A stretch of 64,000 nt of DNA from Planctomycetota bacterium (lineage in GTDB: Bacteria; Planctomycetota; UBA1135; UBA2386). A program made the translations under genes and the position numbers. The notes under the pieces were generated by a model. It worked only from the letters and a program-made list of their open reading frames with translations. It was not told the DNA's origin and did not search any database. The number at the start of each line of letters is the position of its first letter. Position 1 is the first letter of the stretch. The stretch lies in NCBI GenBank assembly GCA_031423015.1, contig JANPER010000150.1, forward strand, positions 3,330-67,329, in the 5' to 3' direction. Positions 2,950 through 45,092 of this stretch are shown here, one piece after another.

Positions 2950-2953
2950 AAGA

Positions 2954-3334
2954 TCACGCTCGGCCGCGCATTGCGTCGAGGTAGTCGACCACGGCGACCA
3001 GGCCGGCGGCCGACTCGATGAGCTGAGCCGGAACTCCACCGAGGTGCGTGTTGTTCGCCTCGAGCCACTGGCGACTGTTGTCGCCGCCGCCGCCGAACAG
3101 GGCATCGAGGCTGCGGAACACGCGTACGAACAGCACCGCCAGCTCACCGGCCTTCGACTCGGGATCGAGCGGTCGGCCGCCGCCCAGGCGCGAGACCGTC
3201 GCCTCGCTGATCCCGAGGATGCGAGCGATACGGTTCTGGCGGACGCCGAGGTGCTCGGCGGTGCGCAAGACGGCGCGGGACAAGACGACGCCGGGGTCGG
3301 CTTCTGGTCGCGAACGGGGTCGGGCGGTGAGCAT
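2954..3334 (-). CDS. Xre-type antitoxin with DUF2384-like C-terminal domain (MbcA/ParS-like)
   Basis: The N-terminal HTH-like segment is LGVRQNRIARILGISEATVSRL. The C-terminal segment WLEANNTHLGGVPAQLIESAAGLVAVVDYLDAMRG is typical of DUF2384 antitoxins that neutralise RES toxins. It is the upstream gene of the pair. Confidence 0.8.
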   Translation of the reverse strand: MLTARPRSRPEADPGVVLSRAVLRTAEHLGVRQNRIARILGISEATVSRLGGGRPLDPESKAGELAVLFVRVFRSLDALFGGGGDNSRQWLEANNTHLGGVPAQLIESAAGLVAVVDYLDAMRGRA

Positions 3335-8334: not shown

Positions 8335-9519
8335 ATGCCGCGTCCCGTCATCGTCTCTGCCGTCCGCACGCCGATCGGCAAGTTCCAGGGTGGACTCGCC
8401 TCGTTCACCGCGCCGCAGCTCGGTTCTCACGTCATCCGCGAGGCGATCAAGCGCGCCGGCTTGAGCGCCGACGCCATCGAAGACGTGTTGATGGGCTGCG
8501 TTTTGCAAGCTGGTCTTGGTCAGAACCCGGCGCGTCAAGCGCTGCGCGGCGCGGGCATTCCCGACGCGATCGGCGCGGTCACCATCAACAAGGTGTGCGG
8601 CAGCGGGCTCAAGGCGGTGATGCTGGCGGCGCAGGCGATCAAGGCGGGCGACGTCAAGGTCGCGGTCGCGGGCGGCATGGAGTCGATGAGCAACGTGCCG
8701 TACCTGTTGCCGACCGCGCGCAACGGCGCGCGCCTGGGGCACACGCAGCTCCTCGACGGCATCATCCAGGACGGCTTGTGGGACGTGTACAAGGACTTCC
8801 ACATGGGCAACACCGCCGAGCTGGTGGTGGAGAAGTATGGAATCACGCGCGAGCAACAGGACGCGTACGCGGTCGACAGCCATCGCAAGGCGGTGGCGGC
8901 GCAGGCCGCGGGGAAGTTCAAGCGCGAGATCCTCGCCCTGGAGCTGAAGGGCAAGAAGGGCGAGGTCACGCTGATCGACAAGGACGAGGGGCCGCGCGGC
9001 GACAGCACGGTGGAAGCGCTCGCCAAGCTGCGGCCGGCGTTCAAGCCGCAAGGTGGTTCGGTCACCGCCGGCAACGCCAGCTCGATCAACGACGGCGCCG
9101 CGGCGTGCGTCGTGGTCGACGAGGACTTTGCCAAGGCCAACGGCCTGAAGCCCATCGCGCGCATCCTCGGTTACACCACCGGCGGCATGGCGCCGGAGTG
9201 GGTGATGATGGCGCCGATGGTGGCGGTGCAGAAGCTGTGTGCGCTGCTCGCGTGCAAAGCGCAAGACTTCGACGTGGTCGAGTTGAACGAGGCCTTCGCC
9301 GCCCAGTGCGTGGCGCTGCAACGCGAACTCGCGATCGACCCGAACAAGCTCAACGTGCACGGTGGCGCCGTGGCGCTAGGGCACCCGATCGGCGCGTCCG
9401 GCGCACGCGTGCTGACCACGCTGCTGCACGCCATGCAGGATCGCGGCGCGACGCGTGGCCTCGCCGCGCTGTGTCTGGGCGGCGGCAACGCAGTGGCCAT
9501 GGGTGTCGAGCGGATGTGA
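8335..9519 (+). CDS. Acetyl-CoA C-acetyltransferase (thiolase II)
   Basis: N-terminus PVIVSAVRTPIGKFQG. The active-site Cys context is INKVCGSGLKAV, and the C-terminal motifs are NVHGGAVALGHPIGASGAR and CLGGGNAVAM. Confidence 0.95.
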   Translation: MPRPVIVSAVRTPIGKFQGGLASFTAPQLGSHVIREAIKRAGLSADAIEDVLMGCVLQAGLGQNPARQALRGAGIPDAIGAVTINKVCGSGLKAVMLAAQAIKAGDVKVAVAGGMESMSNVPYLLPTARNGARLGHTQLLDGIIQDGLWDVYKDFHMGNTAELVVEKYGITREQQDAYAVDSHRKAVAAQAAGKFKREILALELKGKKGEVTLIDKDEGPRGDSTVEALAKLRPAFKPQGGSVTAGNASSINDGAAACVVVDEDFAKANGLKPIARILGYTTGGMAPEWVMMAPMVAVQKLCALLACKAQDFDVVELNEAFAAQCVALQRELAIDPNKLNVHGGAVALGHPIGASGARVLTTLLHAMQDRGATRGLAALCLGGGNAVAMGVERM

Positions 9520-9713
9520 GTCGAACGAAGATCCGGCGCGCGTACGCAAGGTTGTTGTTGGCGAGGTGTGGCGGCCACGTCGTTCCGTTCCCTTGAAGTT
9601 CTAGACGCGTAATCGACGGCAGGCTCAAGCATCGGGGTGCGGAAGCCGAAGGGTGCTCCGCGAGGGCGAACTTCGCAGGCAAACCCGAAAACCTCCACAC
9701 AGGAGAGGCGCGT

Positions 9714-12509
9714 ATGGACGATCGCATGCTGCTGCAACCATCTCGGCGCGAAGTTTCTCGACGCGCATTTCGGCCATTGATCGGTCACTTCCTGTTGACC
9801 CTGTTGGCGGTGGAGGCCGGCGCTCAGCAAGTGGGGGGCACGGGCTTCAGCAGCGGCCGTGGCTTCTACAACCAGCCACTCGACGTGGTCGTGAGCACCA
9901 GCACCGCCGGCGCAACCGTGCGCTACACGTTGGATGGCAGCGATCCGACGTCTTCGTCGAACTACGCCGAGGGGCTGGCGCCGGCGACGGTGCGTATCGA
10001 TCCTGCCAGCACGAACGGCGTGCTGCGCCGGGTGACACCGGCGGTGACGTTGCGGGCCTACGCCTACAAACAAGGCCTGACACCGAGCGCCGTCGATACG
10101 CAGACTTACGTCTTCGTCGACCGTGTGCTGACCCAGACGCGCCCGTCGGGCTACCCCACCGGTTTCGAGTATGACATGGACGCTGTCGTCGTGAACGACC
10201 CCCGCTACCAGAGTCGTATCCGGAACGACCTGCTGTCGGTGCCCAGCATCTCCGTCGTGACCTCGGTGAACGACATGTTCGGGACGAACAGCTTGATGAC
10301 CGCGTCCGCCAGCTCGATCGAGAAGCCGGGTTCGATCGAAGTCATCCATCCCGACGGCCGCAGCGGCGTGCAGGCGAACTGCGGTTTCAAGCCGCACTCG
10401 CACATCCTGCGCAAGCGCAGTCTGCGAGTGTACTTTCGCGGCGCGGTCTACGGCGTCGGCGCACTCCATCACGACTTGTTCCCAGACGCCGTCGAGGGCG
10501 TGGATGCGCGCGTTCGGCGCTTCGACGTCTTGGTCCTGCGTGCCGGCGTGAACGACAACCTGCAAAGCGCCTTTGACGGGCGCAACGGCCGCGCCACCTA
10601 CGTGGTCGATCAGTTGGCGCGTTCGTCGCAGGCAGCGATGAGCGGTTACGGCCAGCGCGGCTTGTTTGCGCACCTGTACATCAACGGCCTGTATTGGGGC
10701 CTCTACAACTTGGTCGAGCGACCCGACGACGCGTTCTCTGCTGGTCAGTTCGGCGGCGACGAGCGCGACTGGTTCGCGATCAACCACGCTGGCGAGCTCA
10801 GCGGCGACCCCTCCTGGTTCCGCGGGCTGGTCAGCAACTCGTGGGATTGGAACGTGGTGCGGCAGCGCCTCGACTTGCCGTCATTCGCTGATTACATCCT
10901 GTACTACTTCCTGAGTGGCGGCGGCGACTGGCCCGAGAACAACTGGTACGCAGGCAACCGTGTGTTGCCGACGCCCGGATTCGTGCGCTACCACATCTGG
11001 GACATCGAGGACTCGTGGATCCGCATGCCGGGACGCGCCAACGACGGTGCCTGGGTTCACCCGAACTTGATCGCTGGCGCCGGGGACCTGGGCCGCATCT
11101 GGACGAATGTCGACAACCACGTCGACTTCCTCATGGTTTTGGCTGACCGCGTCTACAAGCACTGCTTCAACGACGGCGCGATCAGCGAAGATCAGCTGCA
11201 GGCACGCTACGACCAGTTATGCGCGCAAATCGACGGCGCGGTCGTTCCCGAGTCGGCGCGCTGGGGTCGCTTCAAGGGCGGTGGCGGACGTTGGACCCGC
11301 GACGACGACTGGGTGCCGTACAAGAACTCGGTGCGCAGTCTGATGACGGGCAACGTGCAGAGGTTGCTCGCAGCGCTACGCAACGTGAACGTTCCCTCGC
11401 CCCACCCGAAGTACTACCCCGACGTCGAGCCGCCGCTGTTCCGTAGCGGGGGGATCACCCTGAACCTCACCAAGCTCACGGTGGCGCCGGGCTTCCCGCT
11501 GAGCATCGACCGCGCGTCCAGCAGCGGCACCGTCTACTACACGCTGGACGGCAGCGATCCGCGTGCCCCGGGTGGTGCGGCGCGCGGGACCAATGCCGGC
11601 GCCGGCACCAGTCTCAACGTGAACACGTCGATGATCGTGCACGCGCGCACGCTGCATAACGGTGAGTGGAGCGCGCTGCACGAGCTGGTGTTCCTCGTCA
11701 TGCCGACGCTGCCGCTCGAGATCCACGAGTTCATGGCGGAGAACGACACCGGAATCCGTGACGAGACCGGCCAGTCCGAGGATTGGATCGAGATCTGGAA
11801 CAAGTCGCCGCAGCCGTTCAACATCGGCGGCTACCGCCTGACCGACGACATCCGCGTGCCGACGAAGTGGACGTTCCCGGCAGGGACGACAATCCCGCCG
11901 GGCTCTACGATCCTGGTCTGGGCCGACAGTGAGACGACGCAGGGGCCGCTCCATGCCAACTTCGGGCTGAGCGCCAATGGCGAGTTGGTGGCGCTGTTCG
12001 ACCCGTCTGGTACCGTTCTCGTAGACGGCTTCCCCTTCGGGCCTCAGCTTGGCGACGTCTCAGTCGGTCGCTTGGCGGATGGCGACAACACCTGGGTTGC
12101 GCTGTCTAGCCCGACGCCGCGACGACCCAATCGCGCGAGCCCCTGCGGCCACATCTCCTACCGCAGCGCGGCGCTCTTGCCCGTGGCGGCGTCGCTGCGT
12201 GGCGAGGGCACGGTGATGCCGACCGAGCGGATGAAGATACGCCTCAACGGAGCCGCACCATCCAGTCCGGCGGCGTTGGCGGTCGGCCTGCTCCCGGCGC
12301 ATGCCGAACTCAACGGTTTGGGCACCCTCCTGGTGACGCCGCTCATCGTGGTGCCAGCCACGACCGACGTCGAGGGCAAGGTCACATTCACGGTGTGGCT
12401 GCCCCCAGACCCAAACCTGCGCCATGCCACGATCTTCACTCAAGCAGTGTTCGTCAGCGGCGGGATCGCCGGGCTGTCAGACGCGGTGGCCTCTCGCGTC
12501 TGCCCGTAG
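9714..12509 (+). CDS. Secreted CotH-domain protein with Fn3-associated and lamin-tail (LTD) domains
   Basis: An SD-like aggagagg precedes the ATG. The signal-like segment is LLTLLAVEAGAQQ. The CotH core is HLYINGLYWGLYNLVERPDDAF. Two TVRYTLDGSDP/TVYYTLDGSDP modules are present. The LTD is IHEFMAENDTG...EDWIEIWNKSPQPFNIGGYRLTDD...PPGSTILVWAD. The C-terminal ~90 aa belong to the shared module described in findings. Confidence 0.8.
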   Translation: MDDRMLLQPSRREVSRRAFRPLIGHFLLTLLAVEAGAQQVGGTGFSSGRGFYNQPLDVVVSTSTAGATVRYTLDGSDPTSSSNYAEGLAPATVRIDPASTNGVLRRVTPAVTLRAYAYKQGLTPSAVDTQTYVFVDRVLTQTRPSGYPTGFEYDMDAVVVNDPRYQSRIRNDLLSVPSISVVTSVNDMFGTNSLMTASASSIEKPGSIEVIHPDGRSGVQANCGFKPHSHILRKRSLRVYFRGAVYGVGALHHDLFPDAVEGVDARVRRFDVLVLRAGVNDNLQSAFDGRNGRATYVVDQLARSSQAAMSGYGQRGLFAHLYINGLYWGLYNLVERPDDAFSAGQFGGDERDWFAINHAGELSGDPSWFRGLVSNSWDWNVVRQRLDLPSFADYILYYFLSGGGDWPENNWYAGNRVLPTPGFVRYHIWDIEDSWIRMPGRANDGAWVHPNLIAGAGDLGRIWTNVDNHVDFLMVLADRVYKHCFNDGAISEDQLQARYDQLCAQIDGAVVPESARWGRFKGGGGRWTRDDDWVPYKNSVRSLMTGNVQRLLAALRNVNVPSPHPKYYPDVEPPLFRSGGITLNLTKLTVAPGFPLSIDRASSSGTVYYTLDGSDPRAPGGAARGTNAGAGTSLNVNTSMIVHARTLHNGEWSALHELVFLVMPTLPLEIHEFMAENDTGIRDETGQSEDWIEIWNKSPQPFNIGGYRLTDDIRVPTKWTFPAGTTIPPGSTILVWADSETTQGPLHANFGLSANGELVALFDPSGTVLVDGFPFGPQLGDVSVGRLADGDNTWVALSSPTPRRPNRASPCGHISYRSAALLPVAASLRGEGTVMPTERMKIRLNGAAPSSPAALAVGLLPAHAELNGLGTLLVTPLIVVPATTDVEGKVTFTVWLPPDPNLRHATIFTQAVFVSGGIAGLSDAVASRVCP

Positions 12510-12541
12510 GCAGCATCCGCGGCCGTAACGCTCGGACTCTG

Positions 12542-12997
12542 ACGGGCAGCACCTGCCATTGGCAACACCAGGGGCGGCGCAGAAGCCCCTTGCTGCCCGT
12601 TGCCGAATCCCCTCGCCTGAGAGCGTGAGCGAGAATCGACGCGCCGCAGGCGCGCGGCGCCCATCAGGCGCCCAGGAGGAGAGGCCGCGTGTCGCGGCCG
12701 GCGTGGGGGAGGGTCCGCCTCCCCCACCAGCAAGGAACTCAGCGCGGCAGAGCCGCAACCAACGAGAGGCGAAGCGAGCCGCTCGGCGGCTCTGCCGCGA
12801 GTCATGAGCCGTAAGACGTAAGCCCTAAGGCCCAGACCGCTGTCTGACCGCCTCACCGCCGCCGCCTGTCCGCGTTCTGGACTTACGGCTAACGACTTGC
12901 GGCTCATGACTTTCCACAGCCGAAACATCTTCGCGCTTCGCGAAGATGTTTCGGCTGTGGAACTCAGAGCATGAGCAATTGTTGCTCATGCTCTGAG
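12542..12997. repeat. Chain of eight consecutive inverted repeats (hairpin array) filling the CotH-hbd intergenic region
   Basis: Stems read directly from the DNA are: 12542-12551/12591-12600; 12641-12647/12654-12660; 12683-12689/12693-12699; 12703-12712/12718-12727; 12743-12756/12786-12799; 12800-12815/12896-12911 (1 mismatch); 12912-12935/12939-12962 (24 bp, loop ctt); and 12963-12978/12982-12997 (16 bp, loop ttg). Confidence 0.65.
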
Positions 12998-13034
12998 CTA
13001 GCATGCGCGGCCCGCGCTGCCGTCCGCCAGCCCC

Positions 13035-13898
13035 ATGACCGAGACCCTCCCCAAGAAGATCGCCGTGATCGGCGCCGGCACGATGGGCAATGGCATCGCG
13101 CAGGCCTTTGCGGCGGTCGGCGTGCAGGTCGCGCTCATCGACATCAAGGATGAGTTCGTGCAGCGCGGCCTGAGCGCGGTGCATGGCAGCCTCGCGCGCT
13201 TCGTCAAGAAGGGCACGCTGCCGCAAGCCGACGCCGACGCGACCTTGAAGCGCATCCAGGGCACCACCGCAATGGACGCCGCTGCCGACGCGCAGCTCGT
13301 GATCGAGGCAGTGAGCGAGAACGAGTCGATCAAGCGCGACGTGTTCGCGCGGCTCGACGGCCTGTGCAACAAGGCCGCGATCCTCGCCAGCAACACGTCG
13401 TCGATCTCGATCACCAGGATCGCTGCCGCGACCAAGCGTTCGAGCCAGGTCATCGGCATGCACTTCATGAACCCAGTGCCGCTGATGAAGCTGGTCGAGG
13501 TGATCCGCGGCCAAGACACCAGCGTCGACACCACGGCCAGGGTCGTGGCGTGGTCCAGGTCCATGGGCAAGACTCCGGTCGAGGCGCAGGACTACCCCGG
13601 CTTCATCAGCAACCGCGTGTTGATGCCCATGATCAATGAGGCGGTGTTCTGCTTGATGGAGAACGTGGCCACGCGCGAGGGCATCGACGAGATCATGAAG
13701 CTCGGTATGAACCACCCGATGGGGCCGTTGCAGCTTGCCGACTTCATCGGCCTCGACGTGTGCGTCAACATCCTCGACGTGCTGAAGGACGGGTTGGGCG
13801 ACGACAAGTACCGGGCGTGCCCACTCCTGCGACGCATGGTTGCGGCCGGTCATCTCGGCAAGAAGACTGGCAAGGGCTTCTACGACTACACGACATGA
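13035..13898 (+). CDS. hbd: 3-hydroxybutyryl-CoA dehydrogenase (NAD-binding 3-hydroxyacyl-CoA dehydrogenase)
   Basis: The Rossmann motif is IAVIGAGTMGNGIAQ. Also present are ASNTSSISIT, the HFMNPVPLMKLVEV signature and the C-terminal GKKTGKGFYDY. Confidence 0.9.
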   Translation: MTETLPKKIAVIGAGTMGNGIAQAFAAVGVQVALIDIKDEFVQRGLSAVHGSLARFVKKGTLPQADADATLKRIQGTTAMDAAADAQLVIEAVSENESIKRDVFARLDGLCNKAAILASNTSSISITRIAAATKRSSQVIGMHFMNPVPLMKLVEVIRGQDTSVDTTARVVAWSRSMGKTPVEAQDYPGFISNRVLMPMINEAVFCLMENVATREGIDEIMKLGMNHPMGPLQLADFIGLDVCVNILDVLKDGLGDDKYRACPLLRRMVAAGHLGKKTGKGFYDYTT

Positions 13899-15073
13899 CG
13901 CAGATCACCGACCACGCGACCTCGGCGCAGGTTATCGACTTCGAGTTGTCGCCCGAGCTGCAAGTGTTTCGTGCCGAGGTCGAGGCCTTCGTGCGCGACA
14001 CCGACCTGCAGCGCAAGGCGCGCGACTTCGACGCCCAACAGGTCTTCCCTGAAGGGCCCGTGCGCGAGGCCGCCAAGCGTGGCTTGCTCGCGGTGACCTG
14101 TCCCAAGAAGTACGGCGGCCGCGAACTCGGCAACGTGGCGAGCTGCGTGATGCTCGAAGAGCTGAACGCGGCCTGCGCGTCGACTGGCGTCACGGTCTCG
14201 GTGCACAATTCGCTGGTGTGCTCGCCGCTCGGCAAGTGGGGCAACGACGACCAGAAGCGCCGCTACTTTCCCAAACTGGTCACCGGTGAGTGGCTCGGCG
14301 CCTACTGCCTGTCCGAGGCATTCTCCGGCTCCGATGCCGCGGCGCTGCGCTGCGAGGCCAAGCCCGACGGCGACAGCTTCGTGCTCAATGGCGCGAAGCT
14401 GTGGATCACCACCGGCACCGAGGCTGAGTTCTTCATCGTGTTTGCCCGCACCGGCCCCGACCGGGTGAAGGGCATCTCGGCGTTCCTGGTCGAGGCCAGC
14501 TACGAAGGGGTGACCGTCGGCAAGAAGGAGCGCAAGCTCGGCATCCGCGGGTCGCCCACGACCGAGATCTTGCTGGAGTCCGTGCGTGTGCCGGCTACCA
14601 ACATGCTCGGCGAGGAGGGCAAGGGCTTCAGCATTGCGCTCGATACCCTCGATGGCGGTCGGCTCGGCATCGCGTCGCAGTCGCTCGGCATCACGCGCGC
14701 ATGCCGTGACCTGCTGCTCGATCACCTGCGCGCGCAGGTCGACGGCAGTGGCCGGCCGACGGTGACGCAGGCGGCGCAGTACCAACTCGCGGACCTGGCC
14801 GCCGACCTCGACGCCTACCGCATGCTCACGTGGCGCGCGGCGGTGCTGCGCGACCGCGGCGTCCGCTGTAGCACCGAGGCGGCGATGGCCAAGCTAGGCG
14901 CCAGCCGCCTCGCCAATCGATCGGCGCGCGCGACCGTTTCGATCCTTGGCGCCGCGGGCGTGAGCGGCGCCTCCGACGCCGAGCGTCTGCTGCGCGACGC
15001 GCGCATCACCGAGATCTATGAGGGCGCCACCGACATTCAGCGCCTGGTGATCGCGCGAGGTCTGACGGGATGA
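13895..15073 (+). CDS. Acyl-CoA dehydrogenase (short-chain/butyryl-CoA type)
   Basis: The ATG at 13895 overlaps the hbd stop (ATGA). Motifs are GAYCLSEAFSGSDAAAL, KLWITTG and the C-terminal RITEIYEGATDIQRLVIAR containing the catalytic Glu. Confidence 0.9.
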   Translation: MTQITDHATSAQVIDFELSPELQVFRAEVEAFVRDTDLQRKARDFDAQQVFPEGPVREAAKRGLLAVTCPKKYGGRELGNVASCVMLEELNAACASTGVTVSVHNSLVCSPLGKWGNDDQKRRYFPKLVTGEWLGAYCLSEAFSGSDAAALRCEAKPDGDSFVLNGAKLWITTGTEAEFFIVFARTGPDRVKGISAFLVEASYEGVTVGKKERKLGIRGSPTTEILLESVRVPATNMLGEEGKGFSIALDTLDGGRLGIASQSLGITRACRDLLLDHLRAQVDGSGRPTVTQAAQYQLADLAADLDAYRMLTWRAAVLRDRGVRCSTEAAMAKLGASRLANRSARATVSILGAAGVSGASDAERLLRDARITEIYEGATDIQRLVIARGLTG

Positions 15074-16176
15074 GCGAGTCCACGCCGCCTGCATCCGCCG
15101 CGCCGCCCGCCGGCTATCCGGTGTATCCGACCAACCCTCCGAGCGAGGGGCGGCCGGTGTCGTTCTACCTCGCGATCTTCCTGGCGATGCTGCTCGTGCT
15201 GTCGGTCGGCCTCAACCTGGTGTTGCTCGTCGTCGGCGTGGTGCGATCGGCGGCGGGCGGTCTTGGCATCAGCGACGTCAGCGACAGCAACTTCGAGATC
15301 GTCGGCGTCAGCGGCGACAGCGACGCGCGCGAGCGCATTCTGCGCGTGCCGATCGAGGGTGCCATCGCCGAGTCATCGAGTCCGTTGATCGGTGCGCCGG
15401 GCGGCACGGTGACGCAGGTGGAGCGCGCGCTGCGCCTCGCCAAGGGCGACGACTCGATCAAGGGCGTGCTGTTGTTCGTCAACTCGCCGGGCGGCGGGGT
15501 GACCGACTCCGACCTCATCTACCGCAAGATCCGCGCGTTCCGCACGGAGACCGACAAGCCCGTGGTCGCGCTGTTTGGCGACATGGCGGCGAGCGGCGGC
15601 TACTACGTCGCCTGCGCCTGCGAGCACATCATGGCGCAGGGCACGACCATCACCGGCTCGATCGGCGTGATCCTCAGCCAGTGGAACTTCGCCGAAGCGG
15701 CGCAGAAGCTCGGCATCAAGTCGGTCGACATCGTGAGCGCGCGCACGCCCTACAAGGCGATGCTGTCGAGCACGAAGCCGGTCGACGAGAAGGAGGTCGC
15801 CATGGCGCGCGCCCTCGTCGACGAGATGTACGACCGCTTCGTCGACGTGGTGGCCGAGGGTCGTCCGGGGTTCGACCGCGACCGCGCGCGTATCGAAAAG
15901 CTGGCCGACGGCCGCATCTACTCGGCGCAGCAAGCGCGCGAAGTCGGCTTGATCGACGGCGTCGGCACCGAGCACGACGCGATCGAGCTGCTGAAGGCGC
16001 GCTGCAAGATCGGCGCCGCCAAGGTCGTCGAGCAACGGCGTCGCATCGGATTCTTCGATGTGCTCACCGGGGCGCACAAACCGCTGCCGGCGCCGAGCCT
16101 CGAACAAGCACTCGGCCAGTTCGTCGGCAAGACCACTGGGCCGCGCTTGCTCTACTTCTGGCCGGGCGGCCGCTAG
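15070..16176 (+). CDS. sppA: Signal peptide peptidase SppA (36K type)
   Basis: The ATG overlaps the upstream stop (ATGA). There is one N-terminal TM helix (FYLAIFLAMLLVLSVGLNLVLLVVGVV). The S49 core is VNSPGGGVTDSD ... MAASGGYYVA ... TGSIGV. Confidence 0.85.
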   Translation: MSESTPPASAAPPAGYPVYPTNPPSEGRPVSFYLAIFLAMLLVLSVGLNLVLLVVGVVRSAAGGLGISDVSDSNFEIVGVSGDSDARERILRVPIEGAIAESSSPLIGAPGGTVTQVERALRLAKGDDSIKGVLLFVNSPGGGVTDSDLIYRKIRAFRTETDKPVVALFGDMAASGGYYVACACEHIMAQGTTITGSIGVILSQWNFAEAAQKLGIKSVDIVSARTPYKAMLSSTKPVDEKEVAMARALVDEMYDRFVDVVAEGRPGFDRDRARIEKLADGRIYSAQQAREVGLIDGVGTEHDAIELLKARCKIGAAKVVEQRRRIGFFDVLTGAHKPLPAPSLEQALGQFVGKTTGPRLLYFWPGGR

Positions 16177-16189
16177 CCAAACGTCAACG

Positions 16190-17260
16190 ATGCACAACTT
16201 CGCACTTTCCGAAGAGCAACAGATGGTCAAGGAGACCATCGCCAAGTTCGTCGAGGACGTCGCGGCGCAGAAGGCGCTCGACTGCGACGAGCACGCGCGC
16301 TTTGTGCGGCCACAGATCGAGCAGCTCGCCGAGTTGGGCATGCTTGGGCTGCCGATCGCCGAGGCTGACGGCGGCGCCGGTATGGGCTGTGTAGCCACGG
16401 TGGTGGCGCTCGAAGAGATCGCCGGCGCGTGTGGTTCGACGGCGCGCTTGCTGGCTTGTCACGCCGGTGTCTGTGGCGCGGCGCTGGCGGGGTTGCCTGC
16501 TGGCAAGGCGCTGCTCGGTGAGCTGGCGAGCGGCAGCAAGTTGGCGACGTGGATTGGCCCGGAGCACGGCGTGCGCGCCAAGGGCGAAGGTGACGCCGTG
16601 AGTCTAGAGGGGCGCGCCGAGTTGGTGACGGCGTCGACCGAGGCCGATGTGTTCATCGTCGCGGCGAAGGCGGCGACGGGCCATGTGCTCTGTGTGGTGC
16701 AGCGCGCGGCAGTGAAGGCGTCGCCTTCGCGGTCGCTCGGCTTCCGCGCCGCGGCGCCGGGTCGCATCGAGCTGCTCGGTGCGAGCGCCAGCGTGGTGGC
16801 GCGGGGTGCCGACGCGGAACGCGCTGCCGCTGCCGCGCATCTTGGAGCATGCATCACGGCAGCCGCGCTTGCCTGTGGCATGGCGCAGGCGTCGCTCCGC
16901 CTCACCGCGCGCTACGCTGGCGAGCGCATAGCCTTCGGCAAGCCGCTGACGGCGCAGCAGGCGGTCGCGCACAAGCTGGTGGAAGTGCAGCGCAAGATCG
17001 AGTGTGCCCGCCACCTGACCTACCATGCCGCGCGCCTGCAAGACGCCGGCGACGACGCGCGCGCCGCGTCTTTCCGCGCCAAGATGGAAGCGGTCGAAGC
17101 AGCAGTGCTGGCCGCCGACGAGGGCGTCCAGATTCACGGCGGCTACGGCTACGTGGTGGAGTACCACGTCGAGCGTCACTACCGCGACGCCAAGACGCTG
17201 GAAGTGCTGGAGGGCGGTTGCGAGGCGTTGCGCGACCAGTTGGCGTCCCTCGGCGCGTGA
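16190..17260 (+). CDS. Acyl-CoA dehydrogenase family protein (divergent)
   Basis: ATG at 16190 lies inside ORF 16058..17260. The N-terminus FALSEEQQMVKETIAKFVED is typical of ACADs. The C-terminus is IHGGYGYVVEYHVERHYRDAKTLEVLEGG. The middle domain is Ala-rich and less conserved. Confidence 0.75.
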   Translation: MHNFALSEEQQMVKETIAKFVEDVAAQKALDCDEHARFVRPQIEQLAELGMLGLPIAEADGGAGMGCVATVVALEEIAGACGSTARLLACHAGVCGAALAGLPAGKALLGELASGSKLATWIGPEHGVRAKGEGDAVSLEGRAELVTASTEADVFIVAAKAATGHVLCVVQRAAVKASPSRSLGFRAAAPGRIELLGASASVVARGADAERAAAAAHLGACITAAALACGMAQASLRLTARYAGERIAFGKPLTAQQAVAHKLVEVQRKIECARHLTYHAARLQDAGDDARAASFRAKMEAVEAAVLAADEGVQIHGGYGYVVEYHVERHYRDAKTLEVLEGGCEALRDQLASLGA

Positions 17261-17438: not shown

Positions 17439-18734
17439 ATGGAACAGATGCTGCTTGGCGAGATCCTCCTCAACTTCCGCTTGGTCTCCAAGGCGGACCT
17501 GGAGCGCTGTCTCGATTTGCAACAGCGGCTCGACCCGCAGCCGATGCTGGGCAGCGTCCTGTTGCAGCAGGGCCTGATCGACGAGAAGGTGCTGGCCACC
17601 GTCCTGTCGGTGCAGAAAGACGAACTCGGGACCAGCTTGTTCGACGACACCAAGTCGAAGCACGACGTGGCGCGCACGCTGGAGAAGGCCACCATCGACG
17701 ACTTCCTGAACGCGTCGCGCCGTCTGCATGCGTCCGACTTGTTCTTGTCGTCTGGCCGGCGTCCGGCCGTGCGTCGCAACGGGCTCGTGTCCGACCTACC
17801 GTCGGGCGTGCTGTCGCTCGAACGCTGCCGCGACCTGTTGTTCGCGCTGCTGACGCCGGAGCAGATCGAGGTCTATCAGCGCGACCGGCAGATTGACGTG
17901 CGAGTGAAGACCGTGCGCGGTCGCTTCCGCCTCAACGTGTTCCGGCACTATGACGGGATCGCTGGCGTGTTCCGCGTGTTGTCCGATGACGTGCCGACGT
18001 TCGAGGGGCTCGGGCTGCCCGAGGCGGTACGCGAGATTGCCGACCTCAAGAACGGTCTGGTGCTGGTTACCGGTCCCACGGGCTCGGGCAAGAGCACGAC
18101 GTTGTCGGCGATCGTCGACCTCATCAACAAGAACCGCAAGCTGCACATCATCACGCTCGAAGATCCGATCGAGCACATCTTCAAGAGCGAGCTGTCGTTC
18201 GTATCGCAGCGCGAACTCAACACCAGCACGACGTCATACGCCGACGCGCTGCGTGCGGCGCTGCGCGAGGATCCCGACGTGATCGTGGTGGGTGAGCTGC
18301 GCGATCCGCAGACCTTCGCGGTGGCGCTCACTGCTGCTGAGACTGGCCATCTGGTGCTCGGCACGCTGCACACCAACAGCGCGTGCAGCACGGTGGTGCG
18401 TGTGATCGACCAGTTCCCCGCCGCGCGACGCGCCCACGTGCGCACCATGATGTCGAGCGTGCTGCGCGCGGTGATCTGCCAAGAGCTGATCCCGAGCGTC
18501 GACGGCGAGAACATGTATCAGGCGGCCGAGGTGATGATGGTCACCCCCGCGGTGTCGAATCTGATCCGCGAAAACCGCGAGTGGCAGATCCCCAACGTGA
18601 TGCAGATGAACCGCACCCGCGGCATGCGCCTGATGGACGAGAGTCTGATGGAGCTGGTGCGCGCCAAGAAGATCTCGGTCGACCAGGCGCTCATGCGCGC
18701 CACCGACCGCTCGCGATTCACCGTCCCCGCCTGA
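17439..18734 (+). CDS. PilT/PilU-type hexameric ATPase with N-terminal MshEN/T2SSE_N-like extension
   Basis: Walker A is GPTGSGKSTT, Walker B DPDVIVVGELRD and the His box GHLVLGTLHT. A PilT-like AVSNLIRE motif is present. An extra ~90 aa at the N-terminus carries two 24-aa repeats (see findings). Confidence 0.85.
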   Translation: MEQMLLGEILLNFRLVSKADLERCLDLQQRLDPQPMLGSVLLQQGLIDEKVLATVLSVQKDELGTSLFDDTKSKHDVARTLEKATIDDFLNASRRLHASDLFLSSGRRPAVRRNGLVSDLPSGVLSLERCRDLLFALLTPEQIEVYQRDRQIDVRVKTVRGRFRLNVFRHYDGIAGVFRVLSDDVPTFEGLGLPEAVREIADLKNGLVLVTGPTGSGKSTTLSAIVDLINKNRKLHIITLEDPIEHIFKSELSFVSQRELNTSTTSYADALRAALREDPDVIVVGELRDPQTFAVALTAAETGHLVLGTLHTNSACSTVVRVIDQFPAARRAHVRTMMSSVLRAVICQELIPSVDGENMYQAAEVMMVTPAVSNLIRENREWQIPNVMQMNRTRGMRLMDESLMELVRAKKISVDQALMRATDRSRFTVPA

Positions 18735-18756
18735 GGCAAGAAAGAGCAACCCTGCG

Positions 18757-19863
18757 ATGGCACAGATCGATGCCCTTCTCGAGCGCATGGAAGCGCTCCA
18801 GTCTTCCGACTTGCACCTCAAGGTCGACATGCGGCCGCGCTACCGCATCCATGGCTCGCTCGAGGAAGCGACCGACCTGCCGATGCTCGGCAAGGAGATG
18901 TTGGAGCGACTCACCAACGAGATCCTGAGCGACGAGCAGAAACGCCAACTGCAGGTCGGGCATGGGCTCGACTTCGCCTACGGCGGCCCGCGGATCGGTC
19001 GCTTCCGCTGCAACTACTTCGAGGATCACTGGGGCCGCGCCGCCGTGTTCCGCCGCATCCCGAGCAAGGTGCCCTCGCTGCTCGAACTCGGCATGCCGCG
19101 GATCGTCGAACGCCTCGCGCACCTCAAGCGGGGGTTGGTGTTGATCACTGGTGCCACCGGCGCCGGCAAGTCGTCGACGCTGGCGGCGTTGGTCGATCTC
19201 ATCAACAGCAACTACCGCAAGCACATCATCACGCTGGAAGACCCGATCGAGTTCTTGCACCCGATGAAGCGCTCGATCATCCACCAGCGCGGCGTGCACT
19301 ACGACATCAAGGACTTCGGGTCCGGCATCATCGCCGCGCTGCGCGAGTCGCCCGACGTGCTCGTGATCGGCGAGATGCGCGACCTCGACAGCATCCGGCA
19401 GGCGCTCACCGCCGCCGAGGTCGGCGTGCTGGTGTTCGCCACACTGCACACCAACAACGCGGCCGGGTCGATCGACCGCATCATCGACGTGTTCCCGCCC
19501 GAGGAGCAACCACAGGTCCGCGTGCAGTTGGCGCAGAGCCTGGCCGGTGTGGTGTCGCAAGCCCTGTTGCGCCGCCGCCTAGGCACGGGTCGCGTGCCAG
19601 CCGCGGAGATCTTGGTGTGCAACACCGCGGTGAGCAACATCGTGCGCGAGGGGCGCACGCAGGATCTCGTCACCGTGCTGCAGGGCGGCAAGAGCCAAGG
19701 CATGCAGACCATGGACGACTCGTTGGAGCAGCTGGTGCAGCACGGCGTGGTAGACGCCGACGAAGCCTGCCTCCACGCGCAGAACAAGCCGCGCTTCGAG
19801 CGCTTGGTCGGCAAGAGCGATGTCGCCGGCAGTGGGCGGCGCCCGGCAGTCGCGCCGCGTTAG
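18757..19863 (+). CDS. pilT: Type IV pilus retraction ATPase PilT family
   Basis: The N-terminus has SDLHLKV. Walker A is GATGAGKSST, followed by ITLEDPIEF, Walker B SPDVLVIGEMRD, the His box LVFATLHTNNA and AVSNIVREGR. It lies 22 nt after the preceding ATPase gene. Confidence 0.88.
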   Translation: MAQIDALLERMEALQSSDLHLKVDMRPRYRIHGSLEEATDLPMLGKEMLERLTNEILSDEQKRQLQVGHGLDFAYGGPRIGRFRCNYFEDHWGRAAVFRRIPSKVPSLLELGMPRIVERLAHLKRGLVLITGATGAGKSSTLAALVDLINSNYRKHIITLEDPIEFLHPMKRSIIHQRGVHYDIKDFGSGIIAALRESPDVLVIGEMRDLDSIRQALTAAEVGVLVFATLHTNNAAGSIDRIIDVFPPEEQPQVRVQLAQSLAGVVSQALLRRRLGTGRVPAAEILVCNTAVSNIVREGRTQDLVTVLQGGKSQGMQTMDDSLEQLVQHGVVDADEACLHAQNKPRFERLVGKSDVAGSGRRPAVAPR

Positions 19864-22020: not shown

Positions 22021-23262
22021 TCACCGCACTTGCAGGCGGATCCCCGGCGTCGCGGACAGTCCCTGCGCCGACCCCAGATCCAGGTAGACCGACTGGAAGA
22101 AGAAGTCGGTGTTGAGGAGGTGCGTGTTGTCCGGGATCGTGAGCGGCACGGCAAACGTGCCACTTGGCGTCAGCGAATGTGGGATCGAAACCGTCGGGGT
22201 CACCAAGATGGTCGCGCCGAGGAAGGTGAACGAGGCCTGCTGTACGCCGACCAGCATGATGCCCGAGGTCGAAGCCAGTCCGGCGCTGACCGCAATCGCC
22301 ACCGATTGGTTGCGCGCGAAGCAGCCCTCGCTGGTGATCTGTGGAATCACCAATCCTGTACCCGGCGTACCGGCGCCGTAGCTGACCACAGGGCCGCACG
22401 GCAAGCCGAAGCCGCGCACGCCGAGCACACGGTTGGCGCCGCCAAATGTGCTGAATACGAAGTCGCCCGAGATTGGGTCGATTGCCGCGCCCTCGGCACC
22501 GGTGAGGCCGTCCATGAACACGCGACGCGTCGAGAGCCTGGGATCACCGTTGGCGTCGATGTCGTAGACCGTCACCGCGCCGCTGCCGTACTCGCACACC
22601 ACCATGCTTTGGAAGTTCACGAACTGCGGCGAGTCCGGCGGCACGTAGAAGAAGCCCTCGACACCGCCGGCGATCGTGGCCCCTTGAGGCACGTTGGCCA
22701 GGGCGAGGTCGTAGGTTCCGTTGCCGTCGGGTGTCACCGTCAACGTGTAGAAAGAACTGCAGCTGTACGAGGCGACCTTCAGACGTCCGGAGTTGGGGAA
22801 ACCCGCGGGGACGAACGACAGAGCACCCACCGACCCGCACACCGAGAACGGCGCGAGTGGGATGACCCGGTCGGTCACGGTACTGCCGGGACGAATCTGT
22901 CCCACTTCGTTGGCGCTGTACCGCGTGTAGAACATGACGCCGCCCGGGCCGAACTGTGCGCCACCATCGTTGCTTGCCGCCGCCGCGACGAGGGTGGCTG
23001 CGCCGTTGAAACCCGTGATGTGGTTGTTGGCGTCTCGTGTGATCGCGATGCGAAACAGCTGCCCCAGGGAGCCGTTCGCACCACCCATCACGTAGAGGTT
23101 GTTCGGCTCACCAATCTTGAAGGCCACCCCGCCGAGATTGGCCGGCACGCCGCTCGGAGACCCGAAGTCGACATAGGAGTAACTGGCCGCGAACGGCGCG
23201 CGGATGGTCTGCGCTGCGAGTTGGGCGCACGCGAGAACGAGAACGATGGAATGGCGTTGCAT
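22021..23262 (-). CDS. Secreted hypothetical protein (beta-rich) with shared C-terminal module
   Basis: ATG at 23262 lies inside ORF 22021..23376. The signal peptide is MQRHSIVLVLACAQLAAQ. The body is Gly/Asn-rich and beta-strand-like. The last ~90 aa align with the CotH protein tail. Confidence 0.6.
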   Translation of the reverse strand: MQRHSIVLVLACAQLAAQTIRAPFAASYSYVDFGSPSGVPANLGGVAFKIGEPNNLYVMGGANGSLGQLFRIAITRDANNHITGFNGAATLVAAAASNDGGAQFGPGGVMFYTRYSANEVGQIRPGSTVTDRVIPLAPFSVCGSVGALSFVPAGFPNSGRLKVASYSCSSFYTLTVTPDGNGTYDLALANVPQGATIAGGVEGFFYVPPDSPQFVNFQSMVVCEYGSGAVTVYDIDANGDPRLSTRRVFMDGLTGAEGAAIDPISGDFVFSTFGGANRVLGVRGFGLPCGPVVSYGAGTPGTGLVIPQITSEGCFARNQSVAIAVSAGLASTSGIMLVGVQQASFTFLGATILVTPTVSIPHSLTPSGTFAVPLTIPDNTHLLNTDFFFQSVYLDLGSAQGLSATPGIRLQVR

Positions 23263-24460: not shown

Positions 24461-29269
<4,809 letters not shown>

Positions 29270-42692: not shown

Positions 42693-45092
42693 ATGCCTCG
42701 ATCTTCTCGCTTCTCGCTTCTCTCTACCTTGGCGTTGAGCGTCACGCTCTGCGCCCAAGACGATGTGGGTGCTGTCCAACCCGGCAGCCGCCCGCTGATC
42801 CAGCTGCACTACACCGCGTTCGACCCGCTGGTGGGGGAACCCCCCGTCGCCGGCGCGCTGAGCGCGGACGCCGACAGCCGGCTCTGCCTGGTGCAGTTCA
42901 ACACCGAGCCGACCGACGCGCACCGCGACGCGCTGCGCCGCGCGGGCGCCGAGGTGCACTGGTATGCACCCCACCAGGCCTACGTCGTGCGGCACGACGC
43001 GACCAAGCACCACGAACTCGCGGCGCTGTCTGGTGTGCGCTGGGTAGGTGCCATGCATCCGGCCTACAAGCTGCAACCGTCCTTGCTGGCCGAGCTGACG
43101 AGCGGAGCAACCCTCGAACGCCGTACCTACATTCTGGTGTTGGTCGATCCTCGCGCCGATGAGCCGGCGATCGTCGCCGCCGTCACCCGCGTCGGCGGCG
43201 AGATGTGGCGCTACTCCGGTGGCAACATCCTGATCGAGGCCAAGCTGACCGCAGCCCAGACCGTCGCCATGGCGCACGAGGACTCCGTGCTGTGGATGCA
43301 GGTGGCTACGGCACCGGAGACCGACATGGACAACGCCCGCGTCCAGGGTGGTGGCAACTACGTGCAGGCCGCTGGTGGTCACACCGGCAAGGGCGTGCGC
43401 GGCCACATCATGGAAGGCATCTACAACACGCATCCGGAGTTCGCGGCGAACGCGTATCGCACCGCGCCGGTCGCGGTGTTCAGCGGCGTGGCGACCACGC
43501 ACGGCAACTCGACGTTCGGCGAGATCTTTTCGTCCGGCGTGCTGCCAGCGGCGCGCGGCATGTGTCCAGACGGCCAGGGCTACTTCACCGACTACAACTA
43601 CATCTTCGCCACCGCGGCGGGGAGCAACGCACAGAACAGCCGCTACGGCGTGGTGCGTGAGATCACCGATCCCACCAAGCAGTGGAAGGTGATGTTCCAG
43701 ACCGCTTCCTGGGGCTTCCCGCAGATCACGACCTACGACGCGCGCTCGGCCGAGATGGACTGGGTCATTCACCAGTTCGACATCCCGATCTGCCAGAGCC
43801 AGTCGAACACCAGCAACCAGACCTCGCGCCCGCAGGCGTGGGCCAAGAACATCATCAGCGTCGGCGCGCTGAACCACCTCAACACCGCGAGCCCCAACGA
43901 TGACACGCAGAGTGGCACCAGCATGGGGCCGGCGACCGACCTGCGCATCAAGCCTGACCTTTGCGCCTACTACGACGGCATCCACACCACCAACGGCGCC
44001 ACCACCTACACCACGGGCTTCGGCGGCACGTCGGGCGCCACGCCGATGGTCGCGGGCCATCTCGGCCTGATGTTGGAGCTGTACACCGACGGCCTGTTCG
44101 GCCACCCGGCCGCGCCGACCTGGCAGGATCGCTTCGCCTACAAGCCGCACTTCTCGACGGCCAAGGCGCTGCTGATCAACACCGCGCGGCAGTACGACCC
44201 AGCCATCAACGGCGCCGGCGCGACGTCGCGCTTCCGCCAGGGCTGGGGCTTCCCGGCGCTCAACGACCTGTACGACCTACGCAACAACATCCTCGTGCTC
44301 AATGAGCTGGACGTGTTGAGGCAAGGCCAGACGCGCACCTACTTCGTGCACGTCAAGCCGGGCACGCCGCAGTTCCGTGCCACGATGGTGTACGCGGACC
44401 TGCCGACGGCGCCGAATTTCTTGTCGCCGCACCGCGTGAACGACCTCAACCTGCGCGTGCGCGACCCCAACGGCGTCGTCTACCACGGCAACAACGGCAT
44501 GGCGCCGACCACCATGACGTCGGCTAACCTGTACACGACGCCCGGTGGCTCGCCCAACGGCCTCGATACCGTCGAGAACGTGTACGTGCGGACGCCGCAG
44601 CACGGTGTGTGGCAGCTCGACGTGAGTGCGCCGCTAGTGGCGCTCGACCAGCATGTCGAGACGCCGGCCGTCGACGCCGACTTCGCCCTGGTCGCGAGTG
44701 GCATCGCCGCGGGTCGCGATCGTTCCGGCCCTGTGTTGGACCTGGTGACCGGGCCGGGCACCCTGACCCTCAGCATCACCAACAACCCCGCGACCTACAC
44801 GGATGGCTACGTGATGTTCTCGCTGGCGACCACGTTGCCCTACGCGATGGGCAACTTCCTGGGCCTCGAGGCCGATGCGCTGGCGCTGTCGAGCCTGACC
44901 TCCCCGGCTGCCGTCGGCAACGTGTTTCACTTTCTGCCTGCCGGCGCCGGCGTGTTCCCGAACGCGCCGTTCGTGTTCCCCGGCTTCATCGTCACGATCC
45001 TCCAGGGTCGCACGCTCGACGCGGTGGGGTTCTACTTCAACGCCGGCCAGATCCACGCTTCGACCAACGTCGATCGCGTGACCGTGCAATGA
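42693..45092 (+). CDS. Secreted S8 (subtilisin/kexin-like) serine peptidase with P-domain-like region and shared C-terminal module
   Basis: ATG at 42693 lies inside the long ORF 40809..45092. The signal is MPRSSRFSLLSTLALSVTLCAQ. The His motif is TTHGNSTFGEIF and the Ser motif is GFGGTSGATPMVAGHLGL. The P-domain-like stretch is VNDLNLRVRDPNG...VENVYV. Confidence 0.85.
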   Translation: MPRSSRFSLLSTLALSVTLCAQDDVGAVQPGSRPLIQLHYTAFDPLVGEPPVAGALSADADSRLCLVQFNTEPTDAHRDALRRAGAEVHWYAPHQAYVVRHDATKHHELAALSGVRWVGAMHPAYKLQPSLLAELTSGATLERRTYILVLVDPRADEPAIVAAVTRVGGEMWRYSGGNILIEAKLTAAQTVAMAHEDSVLWMQVATAPETDMDNARVQGGGNYVQAAGGHTGKGVRGHIMEGIYNTHPEFAANAYRTAPVAVFSGVATTHGNSTFGEIFSSGVLPAARGMCPDGQGYFTDYNYIFATAAGSNAQNSRYGVVREITDPTKQWKVMFQTASWGFPQITTYDARSAEMDWVIHQFDIPICQSQSNTSNQTSRPQAWAKNIISVGALNHLNTASPNDDTQSGTSMGPATDLRIKPDLCAYYDGIHTTNGATTYTTGFGGTSGATPMVAGHLGLMLELYTDGLFGHPAAPTWQDRFAYKPHFSTAKALLINTARQYDPAINGAGATSRFRQGWGFPALNDLYDLRNNILVLNELDVLRQGQTRTYFVHVKPGTPQFRATMVYADLPTAPNFLSPHRVNDLNLRVRDPNGVVYHGNNGMAPTTMTSANLYTTPGGSPNGLDTVENVYVRTPQHGVWQLDVSAPLVALDQHVETPAVDADFALVASGIAAGRDRSGPVLDLVTGPGTLTLSITNNPATYTDGYVMFSLATTLPYAMGNFLGLEADALALSSLTSPAAVGNVFHFLPAGAGVFPNAPFVFPGFIVTILQGRTLDAVGFYFNAGQIHASTNVDRVTVQ

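Follow-up and report, generated by a model that had tools for sequence, protein, structure and literature searches.

A C-terminal beta-sandwich domain shared by exported proteins of Planctomycetota-like bacteria and its possible role as a portable sorting or anchoring module

Introduction

C-terminal sorting signals make surface proteomes predictable from sequence, and dedicated machinery has come to light through each of LPXTG, PEP-CTERM and the T9SS C-terminal domain. In the window analysed here, a stretch of 64,000 nucleotides (64 kb), two genes on opposite strands encode a CotH/LTD protein and a second protein, called protein B, which is the product of the ORF 22021..23262/23376 on the minus strand. 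The original prediction held that these proteins end in two copies of the same C-terminal module. The locus raises the question whether both tails are indeed homologous and, if so, which function a domain might have that is carried at the very end of such unlike proteins. We refer to this C-terminal domain as the CTD.

Results

Both tails exist as they had been quoted, since the CotH/LTD protein ends in ...SDAVASRVCP and protein B in ...GIRLQVR. A pairwise BLASTP alignment revealed 26% identity between them (24/93 identities, 30.8 bits, E 8e-7). The original prediction had named Smith-Waterman alignment with shuffled-sequence statistics as its check, and a score resembling that of composition-matched shuffles as its refutation. 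We thus compared the tails against a null of 5000 composition-preserving shuffles, in which both sequences were shuffled. Short versions of the tails scored 69 versus 24.8 +/- 4.9 for the shuffles (z 9.1; shuffle maximum 55) and long versions 86 versus 30.5 +/- 5.4 (z 10.2; shuffle maximum 74), so that the observed score lay above all 5000 shuffles (0/5000) for short and long tails alike. In a phmmer comparison of 581 six-frame window segments, the CotH and B tails were reciprocal best non-self matches (E 3.6e-5 and 4.8e-5). An additional phmmer match of the CotH tail to the segment at 56955-58040 on the plus strand (E 0.011) did not recur with any profile and is regarded as a chance match. 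We further employed an independent profile made of 28 database domains, each at most 33% identical to either tail and hence free of their close relatives, and it still scored both (B tail E 2.4e-36, CotH tail E 2.5e-16), while the remaining window segments stayed at E>0.3 apart from the tail of the gene at 38333 (E 7e-6). At the sequence level, the CotH and B tails are thus confirmed as homologous (paralogous) copies of one C-terminal module. A derivation of the CTD by duplication of the adjacent LTD was ruled out (hhalign probability 0.25%).

With approximately 120-125 rather than 65 amino acids, the homologous unit has about double the length suggested by the anchors. It begins at a cysteine, C811 of the CotH/LTD protein (nt 12144) and C289 of protein B (nt 22398). 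The interval 12231-12506 put forward before lies inside the module and is therefore incomplete, as it covers only about its last three quarters. The features of the locus are listed in Table 1.

Table 1. Coordinates of the carrier genes, putative signal peptides and candidate CTDs in the 64-kb window
Feature	Position	Strand	Remarks
CotH/LTD protein gene	9714..12509	+	ORF, 931 aa, secreted; CTD at end
Putative Sec signal peptide, CotH/LTD protein	9714..9824	+	MDDRMLLQPSRREVSRRAFRPLIGHFLLTLLAVEAGA followed by QQ; basic n-region, hydrophobic core, A-x-A
CotH tail CTD	12144..12506	+	residues 811-931 of CotH/LTD protein
Protein B gene	22021..23262	-	413 aa from ATG 23262; signal peptide, beta-propeller, CTD
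Protein B tail CTD	22024..22398	-	residues 289-413 of protein B
Putative signal peptide, protein B	23212..23262	-	MQRHSIVLVLACAQLAA followed by QT; read from sequence
NHL-repeat propeller gene	38333..39616	+	427 aa, signal peptide, divergent CTD; Pfam NHL, SSL_N, Vgb_lyase
Third CTD copy (38333 tail)	39230..39613	+	only C-terminal half (~39458-39613) significant
Possible fourth, highly divergent CTD	39676..39951	-	tail of 39634..40953 protein; borderline
S8 protease gene	42693..45092	+	Peptidase_S8 Pfam match
S8 protease tail	44703..45089	+	129 residues; CTD membership not supported

The passengers of the two carriers are unrelated. The CotH/LTD protein, whose putative signal peptide was read by eye from the translation, matches the Pfam models CHB_HEX_C_1/Fn3_assoc at residues 50-132 (CHB_HEX_C_1 with 62 bits, cut-off 22), CotH (PF08757) at residues 300-521 (40.1 bits, cut-off 23.8) and LTD (Lamin Tail Domain, PF00932) at residues 667-771 (61.3 bits, cut-off 34.3). 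Its CTD (CGHISY...SRVCP) belongs to a divergent subfamily lacking the Gly-rich loop and the second cysteine and closing with RVCP, and it has orthologues in P0001 (90%) and P0002 (65%). Protein B, for which a start at the upstream ATG 23376 is less likely, is recorded as the exact 413-aa product in a public assembly and has orthologues at 38-60% identity. Its passenger has no sequence match in Pfam or NCBIfam, and its assignment to the six-bladed beta-propellers of the NHL/SGL type is hence a structural one: in Foldseek searches, the AF2 model (pLDDT 89.2 overall, below 50 for residues 1-15) matched the TRIM2/3 NHL domain, the PknD sensor domain, lactonases and paraoxonase with E 1e-5 to 1e-4, which identifies the passenger, as modelled, as an NHL/lactonase-like beta-propeller. 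The B CTD is of the canonical type and has both N-terminal cysteines (CGPVVSYGAGTPGTG...EGCF...ILVTP...FFFQSVYLDLGSAQGLSATPGIRLQVR).

The CTD of the CotH/LTD protein was predicted by AF2 as an all-beta domain with 10 strands over 123 residues (pLDDT 93.6, pTM 0.87), and the same strand pattern recurs in the model of full-length protein B, offset by 288 residues. The models thus describe with high confidence an Ig-like beta-sandwich of 10 strands and about 125 residues. Foldseek returned only generic Ig, FN3 and MG-like (macroglobulin-type) sandwiches with TM <= 0.57, including the beta-1,3-glucan-binding N-domain of beta-GRP (TMq 0.51-0.52), and these matches leave room for a plain binding or spacer role. 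Judged from the alignment, the two cysteine columns co-vary, with both residues present in 56 sequences, neither in 49 and one only in 33, while a second cysteine pair is complete in 12 sequences and represented by one residue in a single sequence. This co-variation fits a folded extracytoplasmic domain, and our best explanation includes that the CTD is braced by disulfides.

The extent of the family emerged from an exhaustive HMMER scan of 1.84e9 proteins, with clustering at 50% identity. At least 3333 cluster representatives were obtained at E<=1e-3, and with a limit of E<=1e-10 the number was 283. Such an exhaustive scan was needed, as word-indexed searches with either tail or with a 57-sequence profile retrieved just 2, 3 and 5 proteins. 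Against the family HMM, a profile of 138 database domains, the B CTD scores E 2.4e-42 over positions 3-127 and the CotH CTD E 2.4e-20. Placement of the CTD is nearly invariant: in 149/152 top matches, no more than 0-5 residues follow it, two of the three exceptions resemble frameshift read-through, and one matched stretch is found per protein, never in tandem. A protein with eight matched stretches (P0027) was a low-complexity tandem-repeat false positive. A signal-peptide-like N-terminus was read from the sequences of 82/88 full-length members, and the CTDs of the CotH/LTD protein, of protein B and of the 38333 protein each end at the last residue of a protein with such an N-terminus. The passengers include FG-GAP, BNR, NHL, S8, M14, LamG, CotH+LTD and cadherin-like domains, non-enzymatic propellers (FG-GAP, BNR, NHL) being the most frequent. 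A few apparently complete proteins consist of a signal peptide and a CTD alone (P0139, P0064), suggesting that the domain can function on its own. Several paralogues may share a locus, with four CTD proteins found within 22 kb of locus L088 and two within locus L087.

When 57 isolated domains were compared to Pfam-A (2025 copy) and NCBIfam 20.0 at E<=10, no family model matched; a sequence profile search of the PDB yielded nothing at E<=1, and the literature held nothing relevant on a described Planctomycetota C-terminal domain of this sort. By these sequence searches, the CTD is a previously uncatalogued domain, absent from Pfam, NCBIfam and PDB sequences. It is widespread in mostly uncultured Planctomycetota-like bacteria, a taxonomic assignment that goes back to the four named members, all of which derive from 'Planctomycetota bacterium' MAGs. 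A thiolase, used to place the lineage of the window, reached just 63% identity, to Krumholzibacteriia and Acidobacteriota MAGs. The neighbourhoods of seven member loci contained no recurrent partner gene around the CTD, and neither a sorting machinery nor a ligand partner was found.

The pair had also been taken to validate weaker similarities between 38 and 45 kb of the window, which turned out to be of unequal quality. The 38333 tail matches the family HMM with E 1.5e-7 over positions 77-127, ending at its last residue, and hhalign (probability 92%, E 5.5e-7) as well as an end-to-end alignment with the B-family profile (E 1.4e-5) agree. While the N-terminal half of this CTD has diverged, the sequence evidence identifies it as a real third copy. 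A borderline candidate is the tail encoded by 39634..40953, in a 439-aa protein that has a signal peptide and matches no Pfam model: it aligns in register (HMM 29-113) at a family HMM domain i-E of 0.09 and in hhalign at E 7e-4 with a probability of 26%, and it is missing from the match list of the independent HMM. For the S8 protease tail, no similarity was detectable, as hhalign to the CTD family gave a probability of 0.8% and neither the family nor the independent HMM matched. This tail occupies the position at which the homologue P0069 carries a canonical CTD, and BLASTP between both proteases covers residues 26-670 only (E 4e-38). The window thus encodes three to four CTD proteins. The further claim that the module is appended to very different passengers is borne out for CotH/LTD by Pfam and for the propeller by AF2 and Foldseek; for proteases, it applies to S8 enzymes elsewhere (P0069, P0033), while in the one of the window the module is not recognisable.

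A hint at function came from homologues of the B propeller, which share the passenger up to the motif '...GDFLFSTFGG..V..V.GF' and differ thereafter. Past this junction, L089 (~1e-44) and L090 (6e-40) carry a CTD, L092, L100 and L101 a PEP-CTERM signal (TIGR02595, 24-26 bits, cut-off 16) and L094 a GC-type dockerin (NF041540, 30 bits, cut-off 29), which is weaker in L099, while L098 has an N-terminal lipobox (LLTGC) and no C-terminal extension. Since PEP-CTERM, dockerin and lipobox alternate at the same junction, the CTD appears to take the place of a signal for sorting or anchoring. In L091, L093 and L095, the same propeller is followed by ordinary extra domains, showing that the junction is a general fusion point and not exclusively an anchor slot. 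With L092, L100 and L101 as positive controls for TIGR02595 and the L094 tail for NF041540, neither the window proteins nor the 57 CTDs matched PEP-CTERM in NCBIfam, a regex scan of the window detected no PEP-CTERM-like ORF ends, and the CTDs did not match the dockerin model.

Discussion

Taken together, we propose with a probability of roughly 0.6 that the paralogous tails represent an uncatalogued CTD on Sec-exported carriers which serves as a portable module for surface sorting or anchoring. The functional part of this joint claim is inferred from the exchange of anchors on the homologues of the B propeller. The signal peptide would be cleaved after Sec export, and the CTD might then either tether its passenger (a propeller, a protease or CotH/LTD) to a component of the cell envelope by non-covalent docking or be recognised by a machinery for export or attachment at the outer membrane. 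As such a tag, it would indicate which proteins a poorly cultured lineage of Planctomycetota-like bacteria exports to its surface, and the search for partner machinery would become tractable by phylogenetic profiling. Should the CTD prove to do no more than bind a ligand, thousands of 'hypothetical' proteins would still gain an annotation from a curated model.

Unlikely, although still to be reckoned with, is a reading of the CTD as an ordinary accessory domain of Ig-like type that serves in ligand or carbohydrate binding, as a stalk or in oligomerisation, with no sorting or envelope role. The generic Ig, FN3 and macroglobulin-type sandwiches and the glucan-binding beta-GRP domain among the Foldseek matches would agree with this, as would the stand-alone proteins, the lack of partner genes nearby and the ordinary domains at the junction of some B homologues. 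However, a strictly terminal, single-copy domain that is never found in tandem would be unusual for a spacer or binding module, PEP-CTERM, GC-type dockerin or an N-terminal lipobox replace it at the identical junction, and passengers ranging from proteases and kinase-like CotH to several propeller types seem too diverse for one substrate. In an improbable alternative, the CTD would serve as a pro-domain or intramolecular chaperone at the C-terminus and be removed once the protein has been exported, like the PPC of secreted proteases. While the CTD does terminate secreted S8 and M14 peptidases, among others, most carriers are non-enzymatic propellers, neither PPC (PF04151) nor any other Pfam model matched even at E<=10, and the junction displays no visible conserved cleavage motif.

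We consider it highly improbable that the CTD is a divergent T9SS C-terminal domain and its carriers T9SS cargo. The logic is the same, namely a Sec signal, a diverse passenger, a strictly C-terminal beta-sandwich and many paralogues, and the T9SS domain is likewise an Ig-like sandwich (PMC4804311). Nevertheless, the T9SS CTD models of Pfam and NCBIfam did not match any of the 57 members at E<=10, the 50 Foldseek PDB matches listed contain no T9SS CTD structure, and the 10 strands and ~125 aa of the CTD stand against seven strands in RgpB. Moreover, the labelled members belong to the Planctomycetota, a phylum in which T9SS is not known. Practically no credence can be given to the idea that composition accounts for the similarity in a 68% G+C genome (67.9% in the window), with Ala/Gly/Leu/Val/Thr/Pro-rich tails that are just 26% identical, as the shuffles already refute it and the independent profile, the confident model and thousands of relatives contradict it.

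A more far-reaching version of the sorting or anchoring proposal is that the CTD is the recognition or attachment signal of an undescribed Planctomycetota-like surface-sorting pathway with its own outer-membrane or processing machinery, which we put forward as a tentative and rather doubtful possibility. If this holds true, the pathway would correspond in function to T9SS-CTD/PorU or PEP-CTERM/exosortase and would define the surface proteome, i.e. propellers, proteases and CotH-like proteins, of CTD-bearing organisms.

When compared to known systems, the CTD resembles the type A CTD of T9SS in Bacteroidota (Por_Secre_tail PF18962 / TIGR04183) in being a folded, Ig-like beta-sandwich that terminates Sec-exported carriers with very diverse passengers, and in its many paralogues, which in T9SS occur per genome. 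The T9SS domain is an outer-membrane export and attachment signal, and that of RgpB is a seven-strand Ig-like beta-sandwich (PMC4804311). In contrast to it, the CTD has no sequence match to PF18962 / TIGR04183, resides in hosts labelled Planctomycetota and not Bacteroidota, and possesses an N-terminal Gly-rich loop that is probably bracketed by a disulfide; among the ORFs scanned in the 64-kb window, no PorU/PorV/Sov/GldKLMN was present. With PPC (PF04151) and other Ig-like protease tails, the CTD shares the C-terminal beta-sandwich on secreted S8-type peptidases, but it has no sequence match to them and is mostly attached to non-protease passengers. The PEP-CTERM/exosortase signal (TIGR02595) occupies the same position on B-type propellers and is likewise multi-paralogue, Sec-dependent and passenger-independent. 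A membrane transpeptidase processes PEP-CTERM, whose ~25 residues hold the motif, a transmembrane helix and an Arg cluster, whereas the CTD is soluble, spans 125 residues and has neither transmembrane helix nor basic tail. The B propeller itself recalls the 'Choice-of-anchor' passengers, the NCBIfam name for domains upstream of alternative sorting signals, as it is combined with mutually exclusive anchors (CTD, PEP-CTERM, dockerin, lipobox), although this concept covers the passenger and not the CTD. The GC-type dockerin (NF041540, 'GC-type dockerin domain-anchored protein') differs from the CTD in its size of ~67 aa, its acidic EF-hand-like repeat pattern (DxDxFD) and its unrelated sequence; as a folded, Cys-containing C-terminal domain that serves in anchoring, it would offer the closest parallel to a CTD that docks non-covalently.

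Homology of the two tails and further copies in the window

Both tails quoted in the original prediction are found, at the ends of the CotH/LTD protein and of protein B (ORF 22021..23262), and BLASTP of their last 115 and 125 residues aligns them with 24/93 identities (E 8e-7). Smith-Waterman alignment of the short tails as first delimited scored 69 against a shuffle mean of 24.8 ± 4.9 (z 9.1), and longer tails scored 86 against 30.5 ± 5.4 (z 10.2). The two are also reciprocal best non-self matches among 581 six-frame segments of the window (G+C 67.9%). In the shuffle comparison proposed with the prediction, the score of the pair was reached by 0 of 5000 shuffles, which confirms the homology; that the similarity is compositional chance is exceedingly improbable.

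The interpretation given to this pair is likewise supported, with corrections to the module length and to two further tails. While the module had been put at ~65 residues, the conserved unit, here termed CTD, spans ~120–125 residues in the orthologues of each tail (database proteins P0001-P0005) and in a six-sequence alignment. Among the weaker copies proposed for the 38-45 kb block, the tail of the NHL protein held up as real though divergent (independent profile E 7e-6, hhalign 92%), and that of ORF 39634..40953 is borderline (domain i-E 0.09, hhalign E 7e-4, probability 26%), so that the window contains three significant copies and one borderline copy. The 129-residue tail of the S8 protease, also claimed as a copy, is unrecognisable by profile comparison; either a CTD diverged past detection or it was replaced. 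P0069, the homologue of this protease, is likewise an S8 peptidase and bears a canonical CTD. An S8 peptidase adjoins a sulfatase both in the window (40950-45092, divergent, sulfatase motif CSASRASLLTG) and at the P0069 locus (L081 10001-14174, convergent), which may reflect a loose functional association.

Coordinates of the CTD-related and other genes in the window
Feature	Position	Strand	Remark
RES-domain protein (toxin-like)	2209-3147	-	
Thiolase	8335-9519		
CotH/LTD protein	9714..12509	+	ORF, 931 aa
3-hydroxyacyl-CoA dehydrogenase-like	13035-13898		
Acyl-CoA dehydrogenases	13760-15073 and 16058-17260		
Two adjoining T2SSE-family (PilB/PilT-like) secretion/pilus ATPases	17439-19863	+	
Protein B	22021..23262	-	ORF, 413 aa from ATG also used by public assembly
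Hybrid NRPS-PKS pair	24308-35743	+	
Uma2-family putative endonuclease	36278-37147	+	
NHL protein with divergent CTD	38333..39616		HMM E 1.5e-7 (C-terminal half)
S8 protease	42693..45092		residues 26-670 homologous to P0069

The CotH/LTD gene is inserted between thiolase and dehydrogenase in a stretch of beta-oxidation-type genes (8335-17260), whose thiolase shares ≤63% identity with any GTDB representative found. The first NRPS-PKS protein (1653 aa) comprises formyltransferase, adenylation and PCP domains, the adenylation domain being split by a luciferase-like monooxygenase; the second (2155 aa) is KS-AT-KR-DH-ACP-TE. Immediately after the PKS, the + strand at ~35800-36450, read in frame with ORF 34711..36450, gives ...WPAGFVGSIAHCEGIAIAAVA...GLGVDVEVA..., which looks like an Sfp/EntD-type phosphopantetheinyl transferase.

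Anatomy and predicted fold of the CTD

The CTD starts at a cysteine (CotH C811, nt 12144; B C289, nt 22398) and has the family consensus ..c.g....YG.GlaGsGG.vP.L.g.Gcp..G....l.v..GlggA.G.Ll.G...as.P.lGGTLLV.P....p..Ldg.G..slpl.iPndp.L.G..lyfQa..lDaGAp.GvS.T.GL...ig. The tail of protein B is a canonical member, and that of CotH belongs to a divergent subfamily in which the Gly-rich loop and the second Cys are replaced and the terminus reads ...SRVCP. Modelled with AlphaFold2 from 57 aligned sequences, the CotH tail is predicted to be all-beta with 10 strands (pLDDT 93.6, pTM 0.87), and residues 289-413 of the full-length B model (pLDDT 89.2) repeat this strand pattern after a beta-propeller matching NHL, PknD, lactonase and paraoxonase propellers. 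Cys residues co-vary in two pairs of columns, the first with both Cys in 56 sequences, neither in 49 and one only in 33, the second with both in 12 and one only in 1. This is the pattern expected of disulfides in an exported domain, and the predicted beta-sandwich is probably disulfide-bonded. In CotH-type CTDs (window 12144-12506; P0001, P0002, P0008, P0018) the second N-terminal Cys is absent and the first (CGH...) is always accompanied by that of the terminal ...SRVCP, which suggests, as read from the sequences, an alternative disulfide joining the domain start to its last residues.

The CTD is matched by no Pfam-A or NCBIfam model, whether in the window proteins, in 10 full-length members or in 57 isolated domains (E≤10), and its profile has zero matches among all PDB sequences. 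The matches listed by Foldseek from PDB and BFVD were all sandwiches of generic Ig, FN3 or macroglobulin type (best TM about 0.5-0.57, E>1e-3). Comparison of both domains ruled out the CTD as a repeat of the adjoining LTD. A curated CTD model would be useful.

A widespread C-terminal domain of exported proteins

In an exhaustive HMMER scan of 1.84e9 representatives, the CTD was detected in 3333 proteins (E≤1e-3), 283 of them with E≤1e-10, and in one copy per protein. The domain ends 0-5 residues before the C-terminus in 149/152 top hits, and two of the three exceptions resemble frameshifted read-through. The N-terminus is signal-peptide-like in 82/88 full-length members, often ending AQ, and in all carriers in the window. 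The CTD is a real, widespread, strictly C-terminal, single-copy domain on Sec-exported proteins. Its passengers are heterogeneous: FG-GAP and BNR/sialidase-like propellers, NHL, S8 and M14 peptidases, LamG, cadherin-like domains and CotH+LTD. Paralogues cluster, with four CTD proteins inside 22 kb of locus L088 and two within L087; PSCyt2/PSD1/DUF1501 genes neighbour one member, and an organism label exists for four members, in each case that of a 'Planctomycetota bacterium' MAG. Signal-peptide ends of the type A-Q or A-x-A-Q (...AGAQQ, ...LAAQT, ...PAQAY, ...LCAQDD) are very frequent, occurring in window proteins 9714, 23262, 38333, 40953 and 42693 and many family members, a conserved cleavage-site flavour.

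Alternative anchors and the proposed role

A metagenome scan with protein B as query yielded 13 loci, and all of them keep the propeller (43-58% identity) as far as the motif ...GDFLFSTFGG..V..V.GF, after which the continuation differs. It is a CTD in L089 and L090 (HMM about 1e-44 and 6e-40), a PEP-CTERM signal in L092, L100 and L101 (TIGR02595, 24-26 bits, cut-off 16), a PEP-CTERM-like tail in L096 and L097 (15.5 bits, below that cut-off), a GC-type dockerin in L094 (NF041540, 30 bits, cut-off 29) and a weaker dockerin-like tail in L099; L091, L093 and L095 run on into Pro/Thr linkers and additional domains. The flanks of the PEP-CTERM and dockerin loci yielded no CTD, and none of the ORF ends in the window is PEP-CTERM-like. 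L098 (metagenome contig Ga0075160_10003398) lacks a C-terminal extension or anchor and carries a lipobox (LLTGC) at its N-terminus as well as a linker of ~130 residues rich in Ser and Thr, a B-type propeller tethered by its N-terminus. The B propeller thus shows a 'choice-of-anchor' pattern of mutually exclusive anchoring devices on one passenger, and this swap at the junction puts the CTD where a sorting or anchoring signal would stand.

We therefore favour, at a probability of roughly 60%, the CTD as a portable module that would keep or sort its passenger at the cell surface. By analogy, it might dock onto an envelope component, dockerin-like, or be read as a signal by an export or attachment machinery, like the T9SS CTD. 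Against such a role count its generic fold, the failure to find a partner gene near seven member loci, and apparent signal-peptide-plus-CTD-only proteins. P0139 (161 aa) and P0064 (147 aa) appear complete with nothing else; if real, they would give the CTD a function independent of any passenger. The main rival, that the CTD is an ordinary Ig-like domain serving for binding or as a spacer, is possible though rather unlikely, and a cleaved pro-domain is clearly less likely still. The sorting role is an unproven but testable hypothesis.

Comparison with known systems

In its working the CTD most resembles the T9SS CTD, with which it shares logic, fold class and terminal position, or the GC-type dockerin, a folded C-terminal anchor that takes the place of the CTD on the same passenger. 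Nevertheless, the CTD lies outside the T9SS CTD, PEP-CTERM and GC-dockerin families, because neither their sequence models nor their defining anatomy fit it; that it is a true T9SS CTD is very improbable. Within the searchable libraries and papers, we rate it as a new variant among the C-terminal sorting and anchoring modules.
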